A DNA stretch of 24,000 nt from Halorientalis salina. GTDB lineage: Archaea; Halobacteriota; Halobacteria; Halobacteriales; Haloarculaceae. The position numbers and the translations under genes are program-made. How positions within the stretch are numbered: the first letter of the stretch is position 1; the number at the start of each line of letters is the position of its first letter. The notes beneath the pieces were generated by a model. That model was not told the DNA's origin. It saw only the letters and a program-made list of their open reading frames with translations, and made no database searches. The stretch covers positions 69,662 to 93,661 of the forward strand of contig NZ_SOSC01000010.1 in the NCBI RefSeq assembly GCF_005049285.1, in the 5' to 3' direction. Positions 5,106 to 18,190 of the stretch are shown here, piece by piece.

Positions 5106-6962
5106 TCAGACAGGGGCGACCATGTCCATGGCCTCCCGCACCGACTCGCGCTGGCCCAGAATCGTGATCCGGTCACCGAGTTCCAGCGCCATGTCCGGTT
5201 CGGGGACCTCGATGCCGTCGTCGTGGTCGACCAGGGCGATGAGACAGTCCTCGGGGAGTTCGAGGCGGAGTTCCCGGACGGTGTAGTCGGCGAACCGCTC
5301 GGCCGTGAGTTCGACCTCCTGGACGTCGCCGACGCGGTCCAGATCGGTCATCCAGTGGGCCATGGCGGGCCGTTCGATCTGGTTGTCGATGGCCCAGGCG
5401 GTCGCCATGCTCGCGTCGATGGTTCGCACGCCGAGGTCCTCGAAGGCGTCGACGTTGTCGGGGTTGTTCACCCGTGCGATGACGGTCTCGACGTCGAACT
5501 TCGAGTTCGAGAGTTGCGCGATGAGCAGGTTCGCGTCGTCGTTGCCGGTCGCGGCGATGATCGTTTTGGCGTTGGCACCACCGGCCTCACTGAGGACCTC
5601 CGTGTCGGTGCCGTCACCCCAGACGACCGAGTACCCGTCGTTTCGTGTTCGTTCGACCATTGCCTCTTCCGTTTCGATGATGACGACGTTCTCGCCTCGA
5701 TCTTCGAGGCGTTCGGCGAGCGACCGACCCACTCGTCCGCCGCCAACGATGATGACTCTCATTGGTATCACATCCAGGTATTCCGCGATTTTGCGCGCGA
5801 AGCCGCCCTCGAAGGCGACCGTCGCGAAGATGACCAGAAAGACCGTCCCGACGAGCACCTGGGCCTGCTCGTCCAGCCCCTGGGCCTGCATCTCCACGGC
5901 GAACAGCGTCGCGACCGAGGCCGGAATGATGCCCCGCGGGCCGACGAAGCTCATGAACAGTTTCTCGCTGGTCTTGAACCGGTCGCCCCAGGTCGAGACG
6001 AAGACGAGCACCGGCCGGATGATCAGCATGATCACGGCGACGACGGCCAGTCCGGGTACCCCCAGTTGGAGGAGGTCCTCGAACTCCAGCAGCGCCGCCA
6101 GCGCGATGAAGACGATAGAAAGCACCAGCAACGTGATGTCGCCTTTGAACGCCGCGATTTCGTCCTCGTAGGGGAGGTCGGCGTTCCCGAGCAAGAGCCC
6201 GGCCGTCGCGACGGCCGCGACACCGGCCTCCGTCCTGATGGTATCGGCCGCGGCGAAGGCGACGAGCGCGCCCGCGAGCGTGAGCAGCCGTGCGCTCTGT
6301 GGCGCGTTGCCGGGTGAGAGGTCGACGTACCTGATGAGGTAGTAGATCACGGCGGCGACGACGACGCCGACGAGCAGTCCGATACCCAGGCGCGTGGCGA
6401 ACGCCTCGACGAACGACACTTCCGCCTCGTTTCGGAGGACGATGACCTTGAAGACGACGACGGCGATGATCGCCGCACTCACGTCGTTGATGATCCCCTC
6501 GGTCTCCAGGGCGGTCGCCACCCGGTCGCGGACGGGGACGACCTCCAGGATCGGCGTGACGACCGTCGGTCCCGTCGCGACCAGGAGGGCACCGATGAGA
6601 AAGGACATGTCCCAGGGTTGATCGAGCGCGAAGTGGACGACCACTGCAGTCCCGCCCAGTGCGATCGCGGCTCCCACCGTCACCAGCCTGAGCGTGGCCG
6701 CCGGTGCCGCCTTGACGCGATCGATGCGGAGGTGAAAGGCCCCCTCGAAGACGATGATCGCGACCGAGAGACCGACGATCGCGGGCAGCGCTGGCCCGAA
6801 CGACTCCCGCGTGACCAGGCCCAACCCCTCGGGACCGAGGGCGACGCCCGCGGTCAGGAGGAAGATGATACTGGGCACGCGAAAGCGCGCGGCCAACAGC
6901 TGTGCCCCGACGCCGATTCCGATTATCGCTGCAACCAGTGGAATTATCGCACTACTGGCCAC
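5106..6962 (-). CDS. cation:proton antiporter (Na+/H+ exchanger family) fused to a C-terminal RCK module (TrkA-N + TrkA-C)
   Basis: About 400 aa of multi-TM exchanger sequence, then MRVIIVGGGRVGRSLAERLEDRG (Rossmann GxGxxG, TrkA-N) and a TrkA-C-like end (GDRITILGQRESV). The ORF track starts at GTG 7049, but those first 29 aa (MYRGAESGRTDCECLNH...) look non-native. I favour GTG 6962 (VASSAIIPLVAAIIG). Confidence 0.88.
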   Translation of the reverse strand: MASSAIIPLVAAIIGIGVGAQLLAARFRVPSIIFLLTAGVALGPEGLGLVTRESFGPALPAIVGLSVAIIVFEGAFHLRIDRVKAAPAATLRLVTVGAAIALGGTAVVVHFALDQPWDMSFLIGALLVATGPTVVTPILEVVPVRDRVATALETEGIINDVSAAIIAVVVFKVIVLRNEAEVSFVEAFATRLGIGLLVGVVVAAVIYYLIRYVDLSPGNAPQSARLLTLAGALVAFAAADTIRTEAGVAAVATAGLLLGNADLPYEDEIAAFKGDITLLVLSIVFIALAALLEFEDLLQLGVPGLAVVAVIMLIIRPVLVFVSTWGDRFKTSEKLFMSFVGPRGIIPASVATLFAVEMQAQGLDEQAQVLVGTVFLVIFATVAFEGGFARKIAEYLDVIPMRVIIVGGGRVGRSLAERLEDRGENVVIIETEEAMVERTRNDGYSVVWGDGTDTEVLSEAGGANAKTIIAATGNDDANLLIAQLSNSKFDVETVIARVNNPDNVDAFEDLGVRTIDASMATAWAIDNQIERPAMAHWMTDLDRVGDVQEVELTAERFADYTVRELRLELPEDCLIALVDHDDGIEVPEPDMALELGDRITILGQRESVREAMDMVAPV

Positions 6963-7103
6963 ACCCGATCCTCCATACACCGGACCCAATGAACGGCTGT
7001 GATTTAAACACTCACAATCCGTCCTGCCGCTCTCTGCCCCGCGATACACTCGACCAGCGAGGACGGAGCGCGTTCACTATCGACGATGATAATGCAACCC
7101 TGA

Positions 7104-7113: not shown

Positions 7114-7130
7114 GTTCTGGTGAGGTGAGG

Positions 7131-8795
7131 ATGGTAATGAGTAGCATGAGGCGAATAACTCGGTTCGTTCACTCGTCTCGTCTCGCCGCGTTGGTTCGGT
7201 CCGACACCGACGACCACTCGGAGACGGACGCGACGACCACTGGCGAACCGGACACGGGGGGAACCGACAGAGAGCGGACGACTTCGGAGGACGGCTCGGA
7301 CCAGATGGCGCTGGAGACGACCGATGACGAGGGTGCGGGGGAGACGAATTCCACGTCGTCACCCGTCGGGACAGGCAGCGACCACACGCCAGTCGCCTCG
7401 GACGGCGGGACACACACGGTCGACGCGGCAGCCGCGTCGACCACGTCGTCGCTGGAAGCCACAGCCCGCGACTTCCGCGACGCCATGGCGGCCGCGGCGG
7501 ACGGCGACATCAGTCAGCGCCTGGACACGGACCGGGACAACGACGCGATGGCGGAGGCCGCGTCGGCGTTCAACGAGATGATGACGCATTTCACCGACAC
7601 CGTCGGGGAGTTAGAGGAGTTCGCCGAGGACGTCGACGACGCGACCGAGGAGATGAGCGCCGCCACCCGCGAAGTCAAGGAAGCCAGCGAAGAGGTCAGC
7701 GGGTCGATGGACCAGATCTCGAACAACGCCTCGAAGCAGGACGACCACCTCCAGGAGGTCGCCGACGAGATGACGGACCTCTCGGCGACCGTCGAGGAGA
7801 TCGCCTCCTCGGCCTCGGAGGTCGCCAGTATCTCCAGGGACGCCGCGGAGTTCGGGCAGGAAGGCCGCGACGCCGCCGAGAAGGCCGTCGATCGGATGGA
7901 CGAGATCGAAACGACGGCCGACGACACCATCGAGCAGGTCGAACACCTCGAAGAGCACATCTCCGAGATCAACGAGGTCGTCGAAGTGATCGACGAGATC
8001 GCCGATCAGACCTCGATTCTGGCACTGAACGCCTCGATCGAGGCGGCGCGAGCGGGCGAGGCCGGCGAGGGGTTCGCCGTCGTCGCCGACGAGGTCAAGC
8101 AGTTGGCCGAGGAGGCCAGCCAGGCGACCGAGGATATCAGCGAGATGATCACGGACGTCCAGGACGAGACGACGGCGACGGTCACGGAGATCCGCGAGAT
8201 GGGAGAGCACGTCTCGGAGGGGACGGACACCGTCGAGGAGGCGCTCGAAGCGCTCGACGCTATCGCGGACCGCGTCGAGGACGCCAACGACGGCGTCCAG
8301 TCGATCAACGAGGCCACCAACGAACAGGCGGGGAGTACCGAGGAGGTCGTCGCACTCGTCGAGGAGGTCGCCGACCTCAGCGAGCGGACGGCCGACGAAA
8401 CGCGCGAGGTGTCGGCCTCGGCAGAGGAACAGACCGCCGCACTAACCGAAGTGGCGGCCAACATGGACGGGATCGCCGACCAGGCGACTACCCTCACCAC
8501 GCTGCTCGACGACTTCGAGCGACGCGACGGGGACGGCGGCGACGACGACGATCTCGCCTGGGACGATGCGATGGTTCACGACGGTGACGACGAGGAGGAC
8601 GCCGCGGAAGAGACAGCAGCAGACAGCGACGAGGACGACGACCTCGCCTGGGACGACGCGATGGTTCACGACGGCGACGACGGCGGCGCTGGCGACGAGG
8701 ACGGGACGGGCGGAGAAACGACGGATGCGGACAGCGGCTCCGACGAGGAAGAAGAGATCTCCTGGGACGACGCGAAAGTCCACGACGGGAGTTGA
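7131..8795 (+). CDS. soluble (cytoplasmic) methyl-accepting chemotaxis transducer (Htr-type) with repeat-bearing acidic C-terminal tail
   Basis: Canonical MCP signalling hairpin [40 protein letters not shown] and a HAMP-like segment GDISQRLDTDRDNDAMAEAASAFNEMM. I see no hydrophobic TM segment. The first ~110 aa are Thr/Asp/Gly/Ser-rich low complexity. Start ambiguous: GTG 7125, ATG 7131/7137/7146 or ATG 7305. Confidence 0.9.
   Translation: MVMSSMRRITRFVHSSRLAALVRSDTDDHSETDATTTGEPDTGGTDRERTTSEDGSDQMALETTDDEGAGETNSTSSPVGTGSDHTPVASDGGTHTVDAAAASTTSSLEATARDFRDAMAAAADGDISQRLDTDRDNDAMAEAASAFNEMMTHFTDTVGELEEFAEDVDDATEEMSAATREVKEASEEVSGSMDQISNNASKQDDHLQEVADEMTDLSATVEEIASSASEVASISRDAAEFGQEGRDAAEKAVDRMDEIETTADDTIEQVEHLEEHISEINEVVEVIDEIADQTSILALNASIEAARAGEAGEGFAVVADEVKQLAEEASQATEDISEMITDVQDETTATVTEIREMGEHVSEGTDTVEEALEALDAIADRVEDANDGVQSINEATNEQAGSTEEVVALVEEVADLSERTADETREVSASAEEQTAALTEVAANMDGIADQATTLTTLLDDFERRDGDGGDDDDLAWDDAMVHDGDDEEDAAEETAADSDEDDDLAWDDAMVHDGDDGGAGDEDGTGGETTDADSGSDEEEEISWDDAKVHDGS
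8553..8789 (+). repeat. three copies of an 11-aa motif in the transducer tail: LAWDDAMVHDG (8553-8585), LAWDDAMVHDG (8643-8675), ISWDDAKVHDG (8757-8789)
   Basis: Read directly from the translation and DNA. Copies 1 and 2 are identical in protein and nearly identical in DNA. Each copy follows an Asp/Glu run. The third copy ends one residue before the C-terminus. Confidence 0.9.
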
Positions 8796-8882: not shown

Positions 8883-9281
8883 ATGCCGTACAAGTCCGGA
8901 GAGAGCTGGGAAGTGGACATCGACCAGGGAACGAACAGGCTGTACCTCGAACTCGACGGATACCTCGAGAGCGACGCGGCCGGTGCGGCGGCGGACGCGA
9001 CGATAGAAGGGGCAAAGAAGCTGGATGCGGGGTTCGACATGATCAACGACCTCTCGAACTTCCAGCCCTCCGACGAGGAGGCGATGAAACACATCGAGCG
9101 CGGGAAGAAAGGCATCGCCAAACACGACGTGGCCGCCGTCGTGCGCGTGACGTCCGAGTCGACGACGGGACAGATGCAGTTCGACCGCGCCGGCGAGGAC
9201 GAGGAGAGCTATCAGCTCGCGATGGCCGACTCCCAGGAGAAAGCCGAGAAGCTACTGGACAAGCGACGCGAACAAGCATGA
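8883..9281 (+). CDS. small acidic protein, paralog 1 of 4 (STAS/SpoIIAA-like layout, uncharacterised family)
   Basis: 132 aa. It shares the pattern W-x-V-x-I/T-D...NRLYL-x-L-x-G...GFD-x-IND-x-S-x-F-x-P...ERGK...RV-x-SESTTGQMQFDRAGE...YQLA...AEKLLD with the next two genes. Confidence 0.85.
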   Translation: MPYKSGESWEVDIDQGTNRLYLELDGYLESDAAGAAADATIEGAKKLDAGFDMINDLSNFQPSDEEAMKHIERGKKGIAKHDVAAVVRVTSESTTGQMQFDRAGEDEESYQLAMADSQEKAEKLLDKRREQA

Positions 9282-9349: not shown

Positions 9350-9727
9350 ATGGGCGACTGGAGCGTCGAAATCGACGAGGAGCGGAGTCGAATATACCTC
9401 ACGCTGTCGGGCTACCTGGAGCTATCGGAACACGAGAAGGTGGCCGACGCCGTGACAGAGGCCGCGATCGACATGGACGGCGGGTTCGACCTCGTCAACG
9501 ACATGTCGAGTTTCGAGCCGGCCAGCGAGGACGCGATGGCGGAGATCAAACGCGGGAAGCGCGGCCTCGCCGAGAACGGTATGGAGGCCGCCGTCCGCGT
9601 CGTCTCCGAATCGACGACCGGCCAGATGCAGTTCGACCGCGCCGGCGAGGGCGTCGAGAACTACCAGCTCGCAAAGGCGAACTCGATCGACGAGGCCGAG
9701 AAACTGCTGGACTCGCGGGGCGACTAG
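9350..9727 (+). CDS. small acidic protein, paralog 2 of 4
   Basis: 125 aa. By hand count, 79 of 125 ungapped positions are identical to paralog 3. It contains the identical 15-mer SESTTGQMQFDRAGE. Confidence 0.85.
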   Translation: MGDWSVEIDEERSRIYLTLSGYLELSEHEKVADAVTEAAIDMDGGFDLVNDMSSFEPASEDAMAEIKRGKRGLAENGMEAAVRVVSESTTGQMQFDRAGEGVENYQLAKANSIDEAEKLLDSRGD

Positions 9728-9802
9728 GGAGACCCAGTCGTCGGACAGTCGGCCCGGGACGGGCTGAAACACGTGAGCGATTCGATCACACGGAGAACAC
9801 AC

Positions 9803-10186
9803 ATGGGCACTTGGAACGTCGACACGGACGAGGAGAAGAACAGACTGTACCTATCCCTGGACGGGCACTTCGAGGTCGAGGAAGTGGCGGAAGCGGCGGA
9901 TGCGGTTATCGAGGCCGCGGAGCGACTCGACCCGGGGTTCGACGAGATCAACGACATGTCCGGGTTCGAGCCGGCCGACCAGGAAGCGATGGACCACATC
10001 GAACGGGGCAAACGCGGGATCACCGAAAACGGCGTCGCGGCCGTCTGTCGCGTCGTCTCCGAGTCGACGACGGGCCAGATGCAGTTCGACCGCGCCGGCG
10101 AAGGCGAGGAGGACTACCAGTTGGCGAAAACCGACTCCATCGAGAAAGCCGAGAAACTGCTCGACGCGCGCCGCGAGGACAACTGA
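9803..10186 (+). CDS. small acidic protein, paralog 3 of 4
   Basis: Internal ATG of ORF 9773..10186. MGTWNVDTDEEKNRLYL aligns with the N-termini MGDWSVEIDEE and MGQWSVDVDEE of paralogs 2 and 4. GGAG lies 8-11 nt upstream. Confidence 0.85.
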   Translation: MGTWNVDTDEEKNRLYLSLDGHFEVEEVAEAADAVIEAAERLDPGFDEINDMSGFEPADQEAMDHIERGKRGITENGVAAVCRVVSESTTGQMQFDRAGEGEEDYQLAKTDSIEKAEKLLDARREDN

Positions 10187-10263: not shown

Positions 10264-10635
10264 ATGGGACAGTGGAGTGTCGACGTCGACGAGGAGCGCA
10301 ACCGGTTGTACGCGGAGCTCTCGGGCTTTTTCGTGGAAGAAGAGGCGACGGAGTCGACCGAGGAGTTCATCGAGGCGGCCGAACGACTGGAGACGGGATT
10401 CGACATGATCCAGGACCTCGCGGAACTCCAGATCGGAGATCCGGGCGCGGCGGAGCAACTCGAACGCGGCAAGCGCCGGCTCGCGGAGAACGGACTGGCC
10501 ACCGTCGTCCGGATCCCGCCGACCGCCACGACGAGCGAACTGCAGTACGAGGAGTCTGGCGAGGACGCCGAGAACTACGAGATCAGGACCGCGTCGTCGG
10601 TCACGGAAGCCGAGACGATCCTCGACAACCAGTAA
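10264..10635 (+). CDS. small acidic protein, paralog 4 of 4 (most divergent)
   Basis: In frame within ORF 9811..10635. MGQWSVDVDEERNRLYAELSGFF...GFDMIQDLAELQ...ERGKRRLAENG keeps the family pattern. The conserved SESTTGQMQFDRAGE block is replaced by PTATTSELQYEESGE. Confidence 0.8.
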   Translation: MGQWSVDVDEERNRLYAELSGFFVEEEATESTEEFIEAAERLETGFDMIQDLAELQIGDPGAAEQLERGKRRLAENGLATVVRIPPTATTSELQYEESGEDAENYEIRTASSVTEAETILDNQ

Positions 10636-14991: not shown

Positions 14992-17208
14992 TCAATCGTC
15001 GCCTCCGGAGGGTACCGCCTGTATCTTCTCGTCGCCCGCGTCGATCTCGAAGGCGGCGAGCATCTCCTGGAGTTCTCGGGTCCGCTCGGCCAGGCTCGCC
15101 GCCGAGTCCGACACCTGGCTGATCGAGCTGCTGGCCTCCTCGGAGGCGGCGGCGACGGTCTCGGCCTGCTGGGTGGTCTCCTCGGAGACGCTGGCGATCT
15201 CGTCGACCATCCGGACGATCTGCTGGGCAGAGTCGGCCTGTTCGTCGGTGGCGTCGTTGATGCTCTTGAGGCCGCCGTCGACGCTGTCGACCCCGTCGAC
15301 GATCGCTTCGAGCGAGTCGGTCAGGTCCTCGACGGTCTCGGTCCCCTCGGTGATGCGGGACTCGGCTTCGCGGATGTCCTCGGCGCTGGCCGTCGCCCGG
15401 TCCTGGACCGACGAGATGGTCGTCTCGATCTCGTCGACCGCCCGCTGGGTCTCCTCGGAGAGTTCCTTGACCTCCTCGGCGACGACCGCGAACCCGGAGC
15501 CGGACTCGCCGGCGCGGGCGGCCTCGATGTTGGCGTTCAGCGCCAGAATCGAGGTCTGCTCGGCGATCTCGTCGATCAGACGAGTCACCTCGCTGATCTC
15601 GTCGATCTCGTCGGTGAGCCGCTCGATCGACTCGACTACGTTGCCCGTCTGTGCCTCGATGGACTGCATCTCCTCGATGGTCGCCTCGGCCTGCTCGCGG
15701 CCCTCGGCACCGAGTTCGGCCACCCTGTCGGACTGGCTGGCGACCTCGTCGGTCGTCGAGGCCACCTCCTCGATGGTCGCCGAGAGGTCGTTGACCTCGT
15801 CACCCGTCGCCTGCAGGTCCTCGGTCTGTTCCTGTGCGCCCGTCGAGATTCCCTGGATGGAGCGGCTGACCTCCTCGCTTGCCTCCTTGACCTCGCCGGC
15901 GCTGTCCTCGACGTCGTGACTCGACGCGGCGACGTCCTCGGCGAACTGCTGGACGTCGGCGACGGTCCGTTCGAGGTCGGCGATCATCTCGTTGAACGAG
16001 TCGGCGATCGACTGCATCGCATCACTGTCGGTTTCGGGGTCGAGCCGCCGGGTGAGGTCGCCGTCCGCACAGGCCGCCATCGTCTCGCTGTAGCGTTCGG
16101 CCTCGGCTTCGAGCTGCTCGTTGAACCGCTGGGTCTCGAGTTCGCGCTGTTCGGCCTCCTCGCGTGCGCGTTCGGCCTCGGCTCTCGCGTCGTCGGCTTC
16201 GGCCAGGGACTCCTTGAGCGAGTCGCGCATCGCGCCGAACTCCCCGTAGAGCATCCCGACCTCGTCGGTGCGGTCGGTCTCCAGTTCGACGTCCAGGTTC
16301 CCCTCGCCGATCTCGCTGGCCCGATCCGCGAGCTGGCGCAGCGCCAGTGCGAGGTTGCCACCGATGGTGATCCCGAACACGCCGAGGTTCAGGGCGATGA
16401 CGTACAGGAGCGCGACGAGCCCCGCCGTCGCGGTGTTCCGGTCAGTGTACACCACGTCGCTCGGCGCGTACGTCACGACCTGCCAGTTCGTGTCGGCCAC
16501 GCCCGCCCCCGTCGTCGCGAACTCGGACCCGTCGACGGTCGTCGTCTCGATGCCCTCGTCGCCGGCCAGGTCCGCCGCGCCCGTGGCGTTCCACGCCGTC
16601 GACCCGGATGCGGCCACTGGGGTTCCGTCGACCACGAGCGCCGTCGCGTAGCCGTCGTCCGCGATCCGGGACTGCAGGGACGCCGTCGAGGCGTCCACGA
16701 CGATCGCGCGGTCCGCGTCGACCGCCGCCACGAACGGCACGACCGTCGCGTCACCGCTCACGGCCGCCCGCGGCGTGCCCGCGACCGCCTCGCCGTCGCC
16801 GGCGTCACCGACCGCGACCGTCTCGCCCGTCGCGTCGCTCGCCGAACTCGACAGTATCTCGCCGCTCGTCCGGTCGACGTAGTGGACCGCGGCGACGCGA
16901 TCGGCCCCTGCCGCCCGGTCGAGTCGATCCGCGATCCGGTCGGTATCGCCGCTCTCGACGGCGCTCGACGTCGCGACGCCGGTGGCGAGTGCCTCGTTCG
17001 AGTCGGCCCACAGCGCCGTGACGTTGGCACCGTCGCTCGCGTGGTCGGTGAAGGCCGCGTCCGCCGACTGCCCGAGTTCGCCGGCAACGTTACCGTAAAA
17101 AAAGGCGGTCGAGACCAGCGTGATCAGGAAGACCACGCTGAGCGTGACCACCATCTTCAGGCTGTAGCTCGACCTGACCCGATCCAGTACGTTCGTATCG
17201 AAGTTCAT
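14992..17208 (-). CDS. membrane-bound methyl-accepting transducer (HtrII-like: TM1, ~220-aa extracellular Cache-like domain, TM2, HAMP, MCP signalling domain)
   Basis: TM1 [23 protein letters not shown] and TM2 [33 protein letters not shown] segments ([26 protein letters not shown], and [26 protein letters not shown]) and the MCP core [40 protein letters not shown]. Confidence 0.93.
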
Positions 17209-17335: not shown

Positions 17336-18091
17336 TCAATCACCGGCCGGGGTGTCGGCGCTCGGTGGGTGCGTTCCGTCGTCGCGGAAGTAATCGAGCG
17401 GCGTCGGGTGCTCGGCCGCGAGTTCCCGGATCGCGGTCGGCGCTCGCAGCAGGATTCCGCCGAACCCGATGTGCCCGAGCAGGTCGAGGTAGCCGCCGAC
17501 GTAGACGCCGGTGAACGTCCCGAGGAGCCCGAGGCCCTGGCGGGAGGTCAGTCCGACGACGAGGTACATCAGCATCAACAGCGCCATGAGGTTCCGGAGT
17601 TTCCCGAAGAGCAGCCGCCGGGCACCGGTCACGGCCTGGGCGGACTGGGTGTAAGGGAGGAAAAGCAGGTAGAGAGCGCTGGCGATCGATGCGAGAACCA
17701 TCAGTTTGCCGCCGCTGTCGAAGGGCACTGGAGCGAGCCAGTTTATCAGCGTCCCGGTCACGAACCCGACGAGCGCGATCATTCCAGCGAGCGTGAGCCG
17801 GCGACTGGCGTCCGCGAGTACGCCGATCGACGCGACCACGAGCGGATACGTGAACAGGTACATCAAGAACCGCGAGACGGGAACCGGTTCGCCGCCGGGA
17901 CTGTGAAGGACGAGCAGCTGGTTGGCCATCGCGAAGTAACCGATCATCAACATCCCGGATGCGAACGGTGCGAGCAGCAGGTACTGGCGCGTCGTCCCGG
18001 AGAACTGGCGGAGTCTGGCGACGAAGCCGAGTGTCGCGACGAGCGCCACGGTCGAAACCAGCAGATAGAACGTGCTCTCGGGAATGATCAT
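17336..18091 (-). CDS. bacteriorhodopsin-family (type-1 opsin fold) 7TM protein lacking the retinal-binding lysine (His at the Schiff-base position)
   Basis: Seven hydrophobic segments that align helix by helix with BR and sensory rhodopsin II. Helix C is [14 protein letters not shown] (BR: ARYADWLFTTPLLL). Helix F is [18 protein letters not shown] (BR: VLRNVTVVLWSAYPVVWL). Helix G is [17 protein letters not shown] (NpSRII: YLDLVTKVGFGFIAL; BR: LDVSAKVGFGLILLRS). Start taken at ATG 18091 ([11 protein letters not shown]). The ORF-track start at 18184 is a TTG that adds a basic 31-aa extension. Confidence 0.85.
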
Positions 18092-18190
18092 GATGCCTCC
18101 GATCGTCGGGGTCGGACGACGAGTCGCGAGCGCTGTGCGGTCGTGTCCGGCGGAGCGGTCCCAGACCCGATACTCGACATGCAAGAACGT

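Follow-up and report, generated by a model that had tools for sequence, protein, structure and literature searches.

To our knowledge, the CheR/CheB pentapeptide of bacteria is the only established tail motif of chemoreceptors, and little is known of how signals enter haloarchaeal transducers that are cytoplasmic and lack a recognisable sensor domain. Here we analyse a window of 24,000 nucleotides from Halorientalis salina (contig NZ_SOSC01000010.1, positions 69,662 to 93,661), which encodes a soluble methyl-accepting transducer (Htr) of ~552 amino acids (aa) at 7137-8795 on the + strand. Its acidic C-terminal tail of 89 aa (8526-8792, + strand), delimited by composition and with no predicted structure, carries three copies of a motif built around a tryptophan. 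These repeats are very probably functional docking motifs. We tentatively favour the view, which draws on sequence comparison and analogy, that they are multivalent W-acidic docking sites that would recruit the co-encoded STAS proteins to a sensorless receptor.

The repeats resemble the bacterial NWETF pentapeptide, as both are short, mostly acidic, Trp-containing motifs that follow a flexible linker at the very C-terminus of a methyl-accepting receptor and are found in a subset of the receptors of a genome. They differ from it in their consensus, L-S-W-D-D-A-x-V-H-D-G, which has no Phe or Tyr at W+3 and extends over 11-13 residues, in their number of one to three copies with one residue beyond the last copy, and in their occurrence in an archaeal lineage. 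Because two of the defining features tested were not found in them, the repeats fall outside the pentapeptide family, although they are the same kind of element, namely a linear motif for docking that is carried by the flexible tail of a receptor. The synteny described below indicates that the partner is probably neither CheR nor CheB. Haloarchaeal transducers commonly take their input from a separately encoded adjacent protein, and in the pairs SRI-HtrI, SRII-HtrII, BasB-BasT and CosB-CosT the partners interact through transmembrane helices or periplasmic domains. Like these transducers, the sensorless one studied here adjoins the gene for a candidate input protein, and the window itself holds a probable receptor-transducer pair, a rhodopsin gene at 17336-18184 beside a transducer gene at 14992-17208. 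Unlike in those pairs, both partners of the tailed transducer system would be cytoplasmic, and their contact is proposed to be made by linear motifs on a disordered tail.

The proteins encoded downstream are similar to SpoIIAA, RsbV, RsbS and CheS in being single-domain proteins of ~125 aa with a predicted STAS fold in a signalling neighbourhood. In contrast to classical partner switching, they have no significant Pfam match and no evident phospho-site, and there is no cognate kinase/anti-sigma factor or PP2C phosphatase nearby. The STAS protein CheS binds CheA in Sinorhizobium meliloti (PMC12654446), and it is the nearest precedent for a STAS protein with an accessory role in chemotaxis, although it binds CheA and not a receptor. 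Unlike the gene for CheS, the STAS genes described here are two to five tandem paralogs beside a receptor gene and do not lie inside a che operon. The mode of binding that we propose has its parallel in the tandem W-acidic motifs (L-x-W-D/E) of SKIP and calsyntenin-1, which bind the basic tetratricopeptide repeat (TPR) groove of kinesin light chain by means of hydrophobic pockets and Arg/Lys salt bridges (PMC5450233). The archaeal repeats share with them Leu/Met at W-2, a Trp flanked by Asp/Glu, the tandem arrangement and the location in a disordered acidic region; the two systems are evolutionarily unrelated, a TPR partner was not identified here, and the analogy is mechanistic only.

In translation (7125-8795, + strand), the end of the protein reads ...LTTLLDDFERRDGDGGDDDD-LAWDDAMVHDG-DDEEDAAEETAADSDEDDD-LAWDDAMVHDG-DDGGAGDEDGTGGETTDADSGSDEEEE-ISWDDAKVHDG-S*, and the tail, which begins with DGDGGDDDD ahead of the first LAWDDAMVHDG, has a net charge of -40 with 30 Asp, 11 Glu and 13 Gly. 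On the same strand, copy 1 (DDLAWDDAMVHDG) spans 8547-8585 with its 11-mer core at 8553-8585, copy 2 (again DDLAWDDAMVHDG) spans 8637-8675 with its core at 8643-8675, and copy 3 (EEISWDDAKVHDG-S) spans 8751-8792 with its core at 8757-8789. The first-pass annotation of this DNA had reported three copies of [LI]-[AS]-W-D-D-A-x-V-H-D-G at these core positions, which is exact in translation, and had placed the last copy one residue from the C-terminus, where we find a single Ser followed by the stop codon. It had also rightly stated that the second transducer of the window (14992-17208, - strand) is devoid of the motif, as this protein ends with ...AVPSGGDD. When back-translated to TGGGAYGAYGCNNNNGTNCAYGAYGG, the pattern has three matches in the window, where shuffles give an expectation of 0.01, which rules out a chance repeat. 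At the DNA level, copies 1 and 2 share 90% identity across 61 nt, and copy 3 shows only 64% identity, yet it keeps 9 of the 11 residues.

Conservation in orthologous transducers had been set beforehand as the test by which the idea of a docking motif could fall, and it was found: 19 related loci carry the motif. A DNA pattern scan with one genome per species yielded 18 loci, namely 11 orthologous transducers and seven bacterial matches; the bacterial ones are due to chance, lying out of frame or inside unrelated proteins. The orthologs come from Halorientalis persicus, regularis, pallida (two strains), brevis and marina, from Halovenus halobia, and from metagenome-assembled genomes of Halorientalis, Halovenus and Haloarculaceae. 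In the scanned genomes of these three groups the motif occurs in the orthologous transducer only and nowhere else in the genome. Further motif loci came from H. halophila, from two metagenome contigs, and from look-ups anchored on the downstream STAS proteins. In all 19 related loci, D-[DE]-L-S-W-D-D-A-x-V-H-D-G is present one to three times in the transducer tail, and three times in most of them; without exception, one copy leaves just a single residue before the stop codon. The last copy is separated from the last helix of the transducer by 50-90 disordered residues. All related loci belong to one family-level clade, the Halorientalis/Halovenus branch of Haloarculaceae, therefore the locus counts are not independent.

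Across the 38 motif copies from the related loci, Trp at position 5 and Asp at position 7 are invariant (38/38 each), followed by Ala at position 8 (37/38), Val at position 10 (36/38), Asp, Asp and Gly at positions 6, 12 and 13 (35/38 each), Leu at position 3 and His at position 11 (34/38 each) and Ser at position 4 (33/38), while position 9 is free and holds Q, K, M, V, A or E. The motif thus consists of a Leu at W-2, an invariant Trp and two Asp, then A-x-V-H-D-G, and the stretch L(34/38)-S-W(38/38)-D(35/38)-D(38/38) in a disordered tail of net charge -40 corresponds to the W-acidic class as a pattern match only. The copies use five codons for Leu, four for Gly and three for Ala; since codons vary synonymously while residues stay invariant, selection acts on the peptide and not on the DNA, and a DNA-level repeat or regulatory element is ruled out by the same observation. 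The linkers between copies are of different lengths and could not be matched with one another in the alignment of 13 orthologs, and the start-to-start spacing of the motifs varies from 18 to 38 residues. The three identical 21-residue units in the tail of H. persicus suggest recent duplication or gene conversion. In Halovenus halobia the terminal copy alone is canonical, and the two internal copies are degenerate (VTWNDAAVDDG and VAWEDAEIDGG or similar). The comparison of these orthologs shows the pattern of a functional short linear motif in a disordered region, kept by purifying selection in an acidic tail that is otherwise unconstrained.

The motif was absent from the 120 best homologs returned by the protein search, which are other haloarchaeal methyl-accepting chemotaxis proteins (MCPs) sharing 45-56% identity in the signalling domain only. 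This whole-protein search did not return the true orthologs although their genomes are public, a gap in the protein collection; they were later found by DNA scanning. Because the orthologous transducers were not among its results, negative protein-search results carry no weight on conservation. A protein search with the tail alone produced 204 word candidates, none of which was scored, as such a short and biased query is beyond the search method. The transducer genes of the orthologs are listed without a Pfam record despite a clear MCP domain, which could mislead conservation tests based on proteins only. In metagenome contig L025 (1810-2177) the transducer is reduced to an 86-residue open reading frame (ORF) plus an out-of-frame fragment; this ORF has two intact W motifs at its end and is followed by two STAS genes. 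This may be a gene that has recently decayed into a pseudogene or an artefact of assembly, or it may hint that the tail and the STAS proteins can be kept without the signalling domain.

As to the partner, the comparative evidence points to the four small proteins encoded downstream of the transducer, and not to CheR/CheB, as the candidates; the first-pass annotation had named them only among several possible partners. In all 17 Halorientalis-type loci, two to five STAS paralogs lie directly downstream of the transducer, and in the closest relatives the order of subtypes is kept, with type-1 first and the divergent type-4 last. The four downstream ORFs of the window, all on the + strand, are paralogs of ~125 residues. 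Protein 1 (132 aa, 8883-9281), recognised by tblastn synteny, is of the type that immediately follows the transducer in the closest relatives; protein 2 (125 aa, 9350-9727) was assigned to the family by homology; protein 3 (127 aa, 9803-10186, in an ORF opening with GTG at 9773) was assigned by modelling and structural search; and protein 4 (123 aa, 10264-10635) is of the divergent subtype, in which TSELQYEESGE replaces TGQMQFDRAGE and whose type-4 orthologs occur in the loci L011, L025 and L033. The number of motifs broadly tracks the number of STAS genes. Where loci are complete downstream, three motif copies go with two to five STAS genes, two copies with two genes and one copy with two genes, and H. 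halobia combines one canonical and two degenerate motifs with one unlinked STAS gene; this positive trend is not one-to-one and includes no phylogenetic correction. The single STAS ortholog found in the H. halobia genome lies on another contig and is 73% identical to protein 3 of the window.

The four small proteins have no Pfam or NCBIfam match. An AlphaFold2 model of protein 3, based on an alignment of 63 sequences, reached a predicted local distance difference test (pLDDT) of 86.6 and a predicted template modelling score (pTM) of 0.80, with the element order b-b-a-b-a-b-a-b-a. Foldseek matched this model to anti-sigma-factor antagonists and STAS domains (E ~1e-4, TM 0.65-0.73, probability 1.00), with 4hyl, 1vc1, 6m36, 1tid and 6jhk among the top matches; SpoIIAA, RsbV, RsbS and TM1442 are among the proteins matched. 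According to the model, the downstream proteins have a STAS (SpoIIAA/RsbV-like) fold. A hidden Markov model of the family gave no meaningful match when compared with PDB sequences, thus the STAS assignment is one of fold only; distant family members matched Pfam STAS (PF01740) and SpoIIAA-like (PF11964) only below the threshold, with E 0.0065 and 0.049.

The STAS proteins are very acidic, with net charges of -13 to -22, yet they have five or six conserved Arg/Lys residues, among them R14, R68, K70, R83 and R97. From the family alignment and the model, their most conserved segments are the beta3-alpha2 loop, the beta4-alpha3 loop and alpha3, which by the order of secondary structure elements correspond to the partner-binding face of SpoIIAA/RsbV; in published structures SpoIIAA and RsbV contact their partners through that same face. 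Before helix 2 there is P-[AS]-[DS]-x-E, mostly with Asp, and no invariant Ser/Thr in a family alignment that is not structure-based. No HATPase-type kinase/anti-sigma factor or PP2C phosphatase was present among the annotated neighbours in the window and the related loci.

The close STAS subfamily comprises 63 clusters among 5.8 billion proteins, and the organism names attached to them are all Halorientalis, Halovenus or Haloarculaceae. An exhaustive profile search brought to light a wider STAS-like family of 814 representative clusters at E <= 1e-3, which is undetected by the current domain databases Pfam and NCBIfam. This wider family has bacterial members, tandem two-domain forms (P0190, P0216) and a PilZ fusion (P0285), and one member adjoins a Cache-GAF-PAS sensor (L039). 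The distant members P0192 and P0230, from hypersaline or haloarchaeal contigs, are standalone proteins in unrelated contexts. No W-acidic motifs were found among the neighbours of the distant STAS-like proteins examined, both bacterial and from other haloarchaea. AT-rich boxes ~25-30 nt upstream of some STAS genes were seen by eye.

We infer the STAS partner from synteny, phyletic pattern and analogy, and we hypothesize that the system could work as follows. Each motif would bind one STAS domain, with its hydrophobic anchors (L, W, V) and acidic residues contacting the few conserved Arg/Lys of the acidic STAS proteins. One receptor dimer could then carry several STAS subunits, and by a rough estimate of domain size the motif spacing of 18-38 residues would let several 14-kDa domains bind at once. 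The STAS proteins would be input or modulatory subunits of the receptor, and their binding or release in the style of partner switching might alter kinase control or array incorporation. With more reserve than for recruitment itself, we suggest that a cytoplasmic chemoreceptor could get its input from up to five STAS paralogs held on tandem W-acidic motifs of its tail. If true, this would be a partner-switching input layer that feeds directly into a chemotaxis receptor, and archaeal transducers would have gained, in these repeats, their first functional tail motif, one without relation to the CheR/CheB pentapeptide of bacteria. Should the link hold, STAS proteins would have a second case of a role in chemotaxis, after CheS, and their first at the receptor, within the narrow distribution of the Halorientalis/Halovenus branch of Haloarculaceae. 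With a concrete 13-residue peptide that can be synthesised, adjacent candidate partners, and natural variants that differ in having one to three copies or degenerate ones, the question is directly testable.

Several observations weigh against STAS recruitment by the tail. The STAS gene of Halovenus is not adjacent to the transducer, whose downstream gene there is convergent and unrelated to STAS. The numbers of motifs and STAS genes do not correspond one-to-one (three against two to five, one against two), and common descent may account for the dose trend, as the loci are close to one another in phylogeny. The tail joined to STAS protein 1 and folded without an alignment gave a pLDDT of 42.8 and a pTM of 0.20, with the STAS domain itself unfolded, so this model is uninformative. 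Since the wider family lives in bacteria and in other haloarchaea without such a transducer nearby, the STAS fold does not require the motif. Moreover, adjacency argues for a link between the transducer and the STAS proteins, and not specifically for the tail as their contact. Alternative contact sites are the conserved basic N-terminal segment MSSMRRITRFVHSSRLAALVRS (7137-7202, + strand, from the alignment of 13 orthologs), which is followed by a variable acidic disordered region, and the conserved A-[AS]-D-G-G-[AT] motif within the N-terminal disordered region (7389-7421, + strand, from the ortholog alignment).

The first-pass annotation had likened the repeats to the pentapeptide that tethers CheR and CheB. 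In that case the motif would be its archaeal counterpart, a high-affinity tether keeping CheR and/or CheB near the receptor, and three copies would raise the local enzyme concentration in a cytoplasmic array; we consider this unlikely. The architecture of the terminal tail does agree with the comparison, as both share the general design in which an aromatic residue lies among acidic ones at the far C-terminal end, after a flexible linker, and the window transducer keeps the canonical-looking, methylation-site-like segment SASAEEQTAAL (8412-8444, + strand). A dedicated pairing is known from Pseudomonas aeruginosa, where the single pentapeptide receptor (McpB/Aer2) is paired with a dedicated CheR2, which we counted in favour of a tether. 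The bacterial pentapeptides are, furthermore, mostly acidic, and the CheR site to which they bind is basic (PMC7390727). However, the xWxxF pattern, on which we rejected a canonical pentapeptide, is not present, since W+3 is Ala in 37 of the 38 copies and there is no second aromatic residue; the conserved unit has 11-13 residues and not five, in one to three copies and not a single one. The motif is confined to one transducer per genome, none of the 120 closest haloarchaeal MCP homologs has it, and the DGG-x3-4 or -DD terminal signatures of other haloarchaeal transducers would better fit a generic function common to all receptors.

The methylation-like segment itself also speaks against a CheR/CheB tether. 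SASAEEQTAAL is kept in the window-like orthologs, whereas the H. persicus-type and Halovenus orthologs have KATGTQTTML or AQATTVQTTML instead, so that AEEQ becomes TGTQ or TTVQ; because it is replaced in orthologs with a fully conserved tail, the methylation-like site does not track the tail. Canonical pentapeptides were found in 0 of 2730 Halobacteriales chemoreceptors (PMC7390727), and none of the papers searched mentions an SWDDA motif, which agrees with the earlier statement that no equivalent had been described for haloarchaeal Htrs. The papers searched also yielded nothing relevant on STAS proteins in haloarchaea.

Somewhat more doubtful again is that the motif binds another array component (CheW, CheA, CheD/CheC or a HEAT-repeat protein) or the receptor itself. 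In the self-binding form, the acidic motifs could, for example, contact the basic N-termini of neighbouring dimers, and with three of them per chain the soluble receptors would be cross-linked to form a cluster in the cytoplasm. The basic segment and the multivalent acidic motifs are located at opposite ends of one protein, multivalency is typical of clustering interactions, and the cytoplasmic Htrs of Halobacterium salinarum, fished by CheW2, show distinct interaction patterns (PMC3579733). On the other side, such binding would leave the conserved STAS pairing unexplained, and in Halovenus the ortholog alignment shows only moderate conservation of the N-terminal segment. This segment has a net charge of +3 over the first 25 residues of the transducer and could be a second docking site or an intramolecular partner of the acidic tail. 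It is probably amphipathic, with MSSMRRITRFVHSSRLAALVRS in the window and MSLASRVSALLRS in most orthologs. A HEAT-repeat protein is encoded ~2 kb from the unlinked STAS ortholog in H. halobia (L019, 8384-9676). Solenoids of the HEAT type are able to bind acidic linear motifs, and a HEAT_PBS protein belongs to the che cluster of Halobacterium, but this proximity may well be a coincidence. There are no che genes in the window.

Divergent from the transducer lies the gene for a Na+/H+ exchanger with TrkA_N and TrkA_C (TrkA/RCK) domains (5106-7049, - strand; Pfam, tblastn), found with 68-79% tblastn identity in 10 loci and conserved in position in the Halorientalis-type loci. The tail might dock the receptor onto these TrkA/RCK domains and couple taxis to ion/pH homeostasis, which we regard as highly improbable. 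The exchanger is the divergent neighbour in every Halorientalis-type locus for which the upstream flank was available, but the adjacency may be inherited synteny, and Halovenus, which has a histidine-kinase-like ORF as the upstream neighbour instead of the exchanger, still keeps the motif.

That the repeats are functionless slippage products in a low-complexity acidic tail serving high-salt solubility is barely credible and strongly disfavoured, for although the DNA around them is rich in GAC/GGC with short tandem repeats, copies 1 and 2 are nearly the same at the DNA level (90% identity) and H. persicus has its three identical 21-residue units, the conservation pattern contradicts this explanation, with an 11-mer better conserved across species than the surrounding linkers, synonymous codon variation under invariant residues, one copy fixed one residue from the C-terminus in 19/19 loci, and the motif in 0 of 120 other acidic Htr tails.

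The transducer ORF opens with GTG at 7125, and the N-termini of the orthologs (MSS/MSL) align from the ATG at 7137 (MSSMRRITRF...); because of this match, the likely start codon, on sequence grounds, is ATG 7137 and not GTG 7125. The protein contains a Pfam MCPsignal domain (PF00015; E 5.8e-46, 156.9 bits against a cut-off of 34.6). It is called soluble because it has no hydrophobic segment, which bears out the earlier description; its maximum KD19 is 0.87 with no transmembrane (TM) segment, and the second transducer reaches 2.38 with two TM segments. The MCP signalling domain spans 7869-8378 (+ strand, Pfam match), and its conserved hairpin tip (7983-8114, + strand) has a sequence kept in all orthologs aligned. 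It is preceded by a HAMP-like segment (7452-7604, + strand), which matches Pfam HAMP below the threshold (E 0.018) and is strongly conserved in the orthologs. By Pfam and alignment, the protein has no sensor domain; the short basic N-terminal segment is followed by a variable acidic linker with the conserved A-[AS]-D-G-G motif and by the HAMP-like segment, and the signalling domain and the tail come last.

Other haloarchaeal transducers end in different ways. Among the 120 examined, 38 (32%) have [A/S/T/P]-D-G-G at a distance of mostly 3-4 residues from the C-terminus, the background being 0.4% per window of 15 residues, and 55 end with -DD, including the second transducer of the window. The W-tail family has neither DGG-x3-4 nor -DD at its C-terminus and has A-[AS]-D-G-G-[AT] in the N-terminal disordered region instead. 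No literature on the DGG motif was found; the DGG and DD terminal signatures could be generic docking signals. The second transducer (14992-17208, - strand) is a membrane protein with two TM segments and the C-terminus ...SGGDD, and directly upstream of it lies a bacteriorhodopsin-like gene (17336-18184, - strand; Pfam E 5e-15), with which it probably forms a sensory rhodopsin/transducer pair. The same rhodopsin-transducer pair is present near the W-tail locus in metagenome contig L036.

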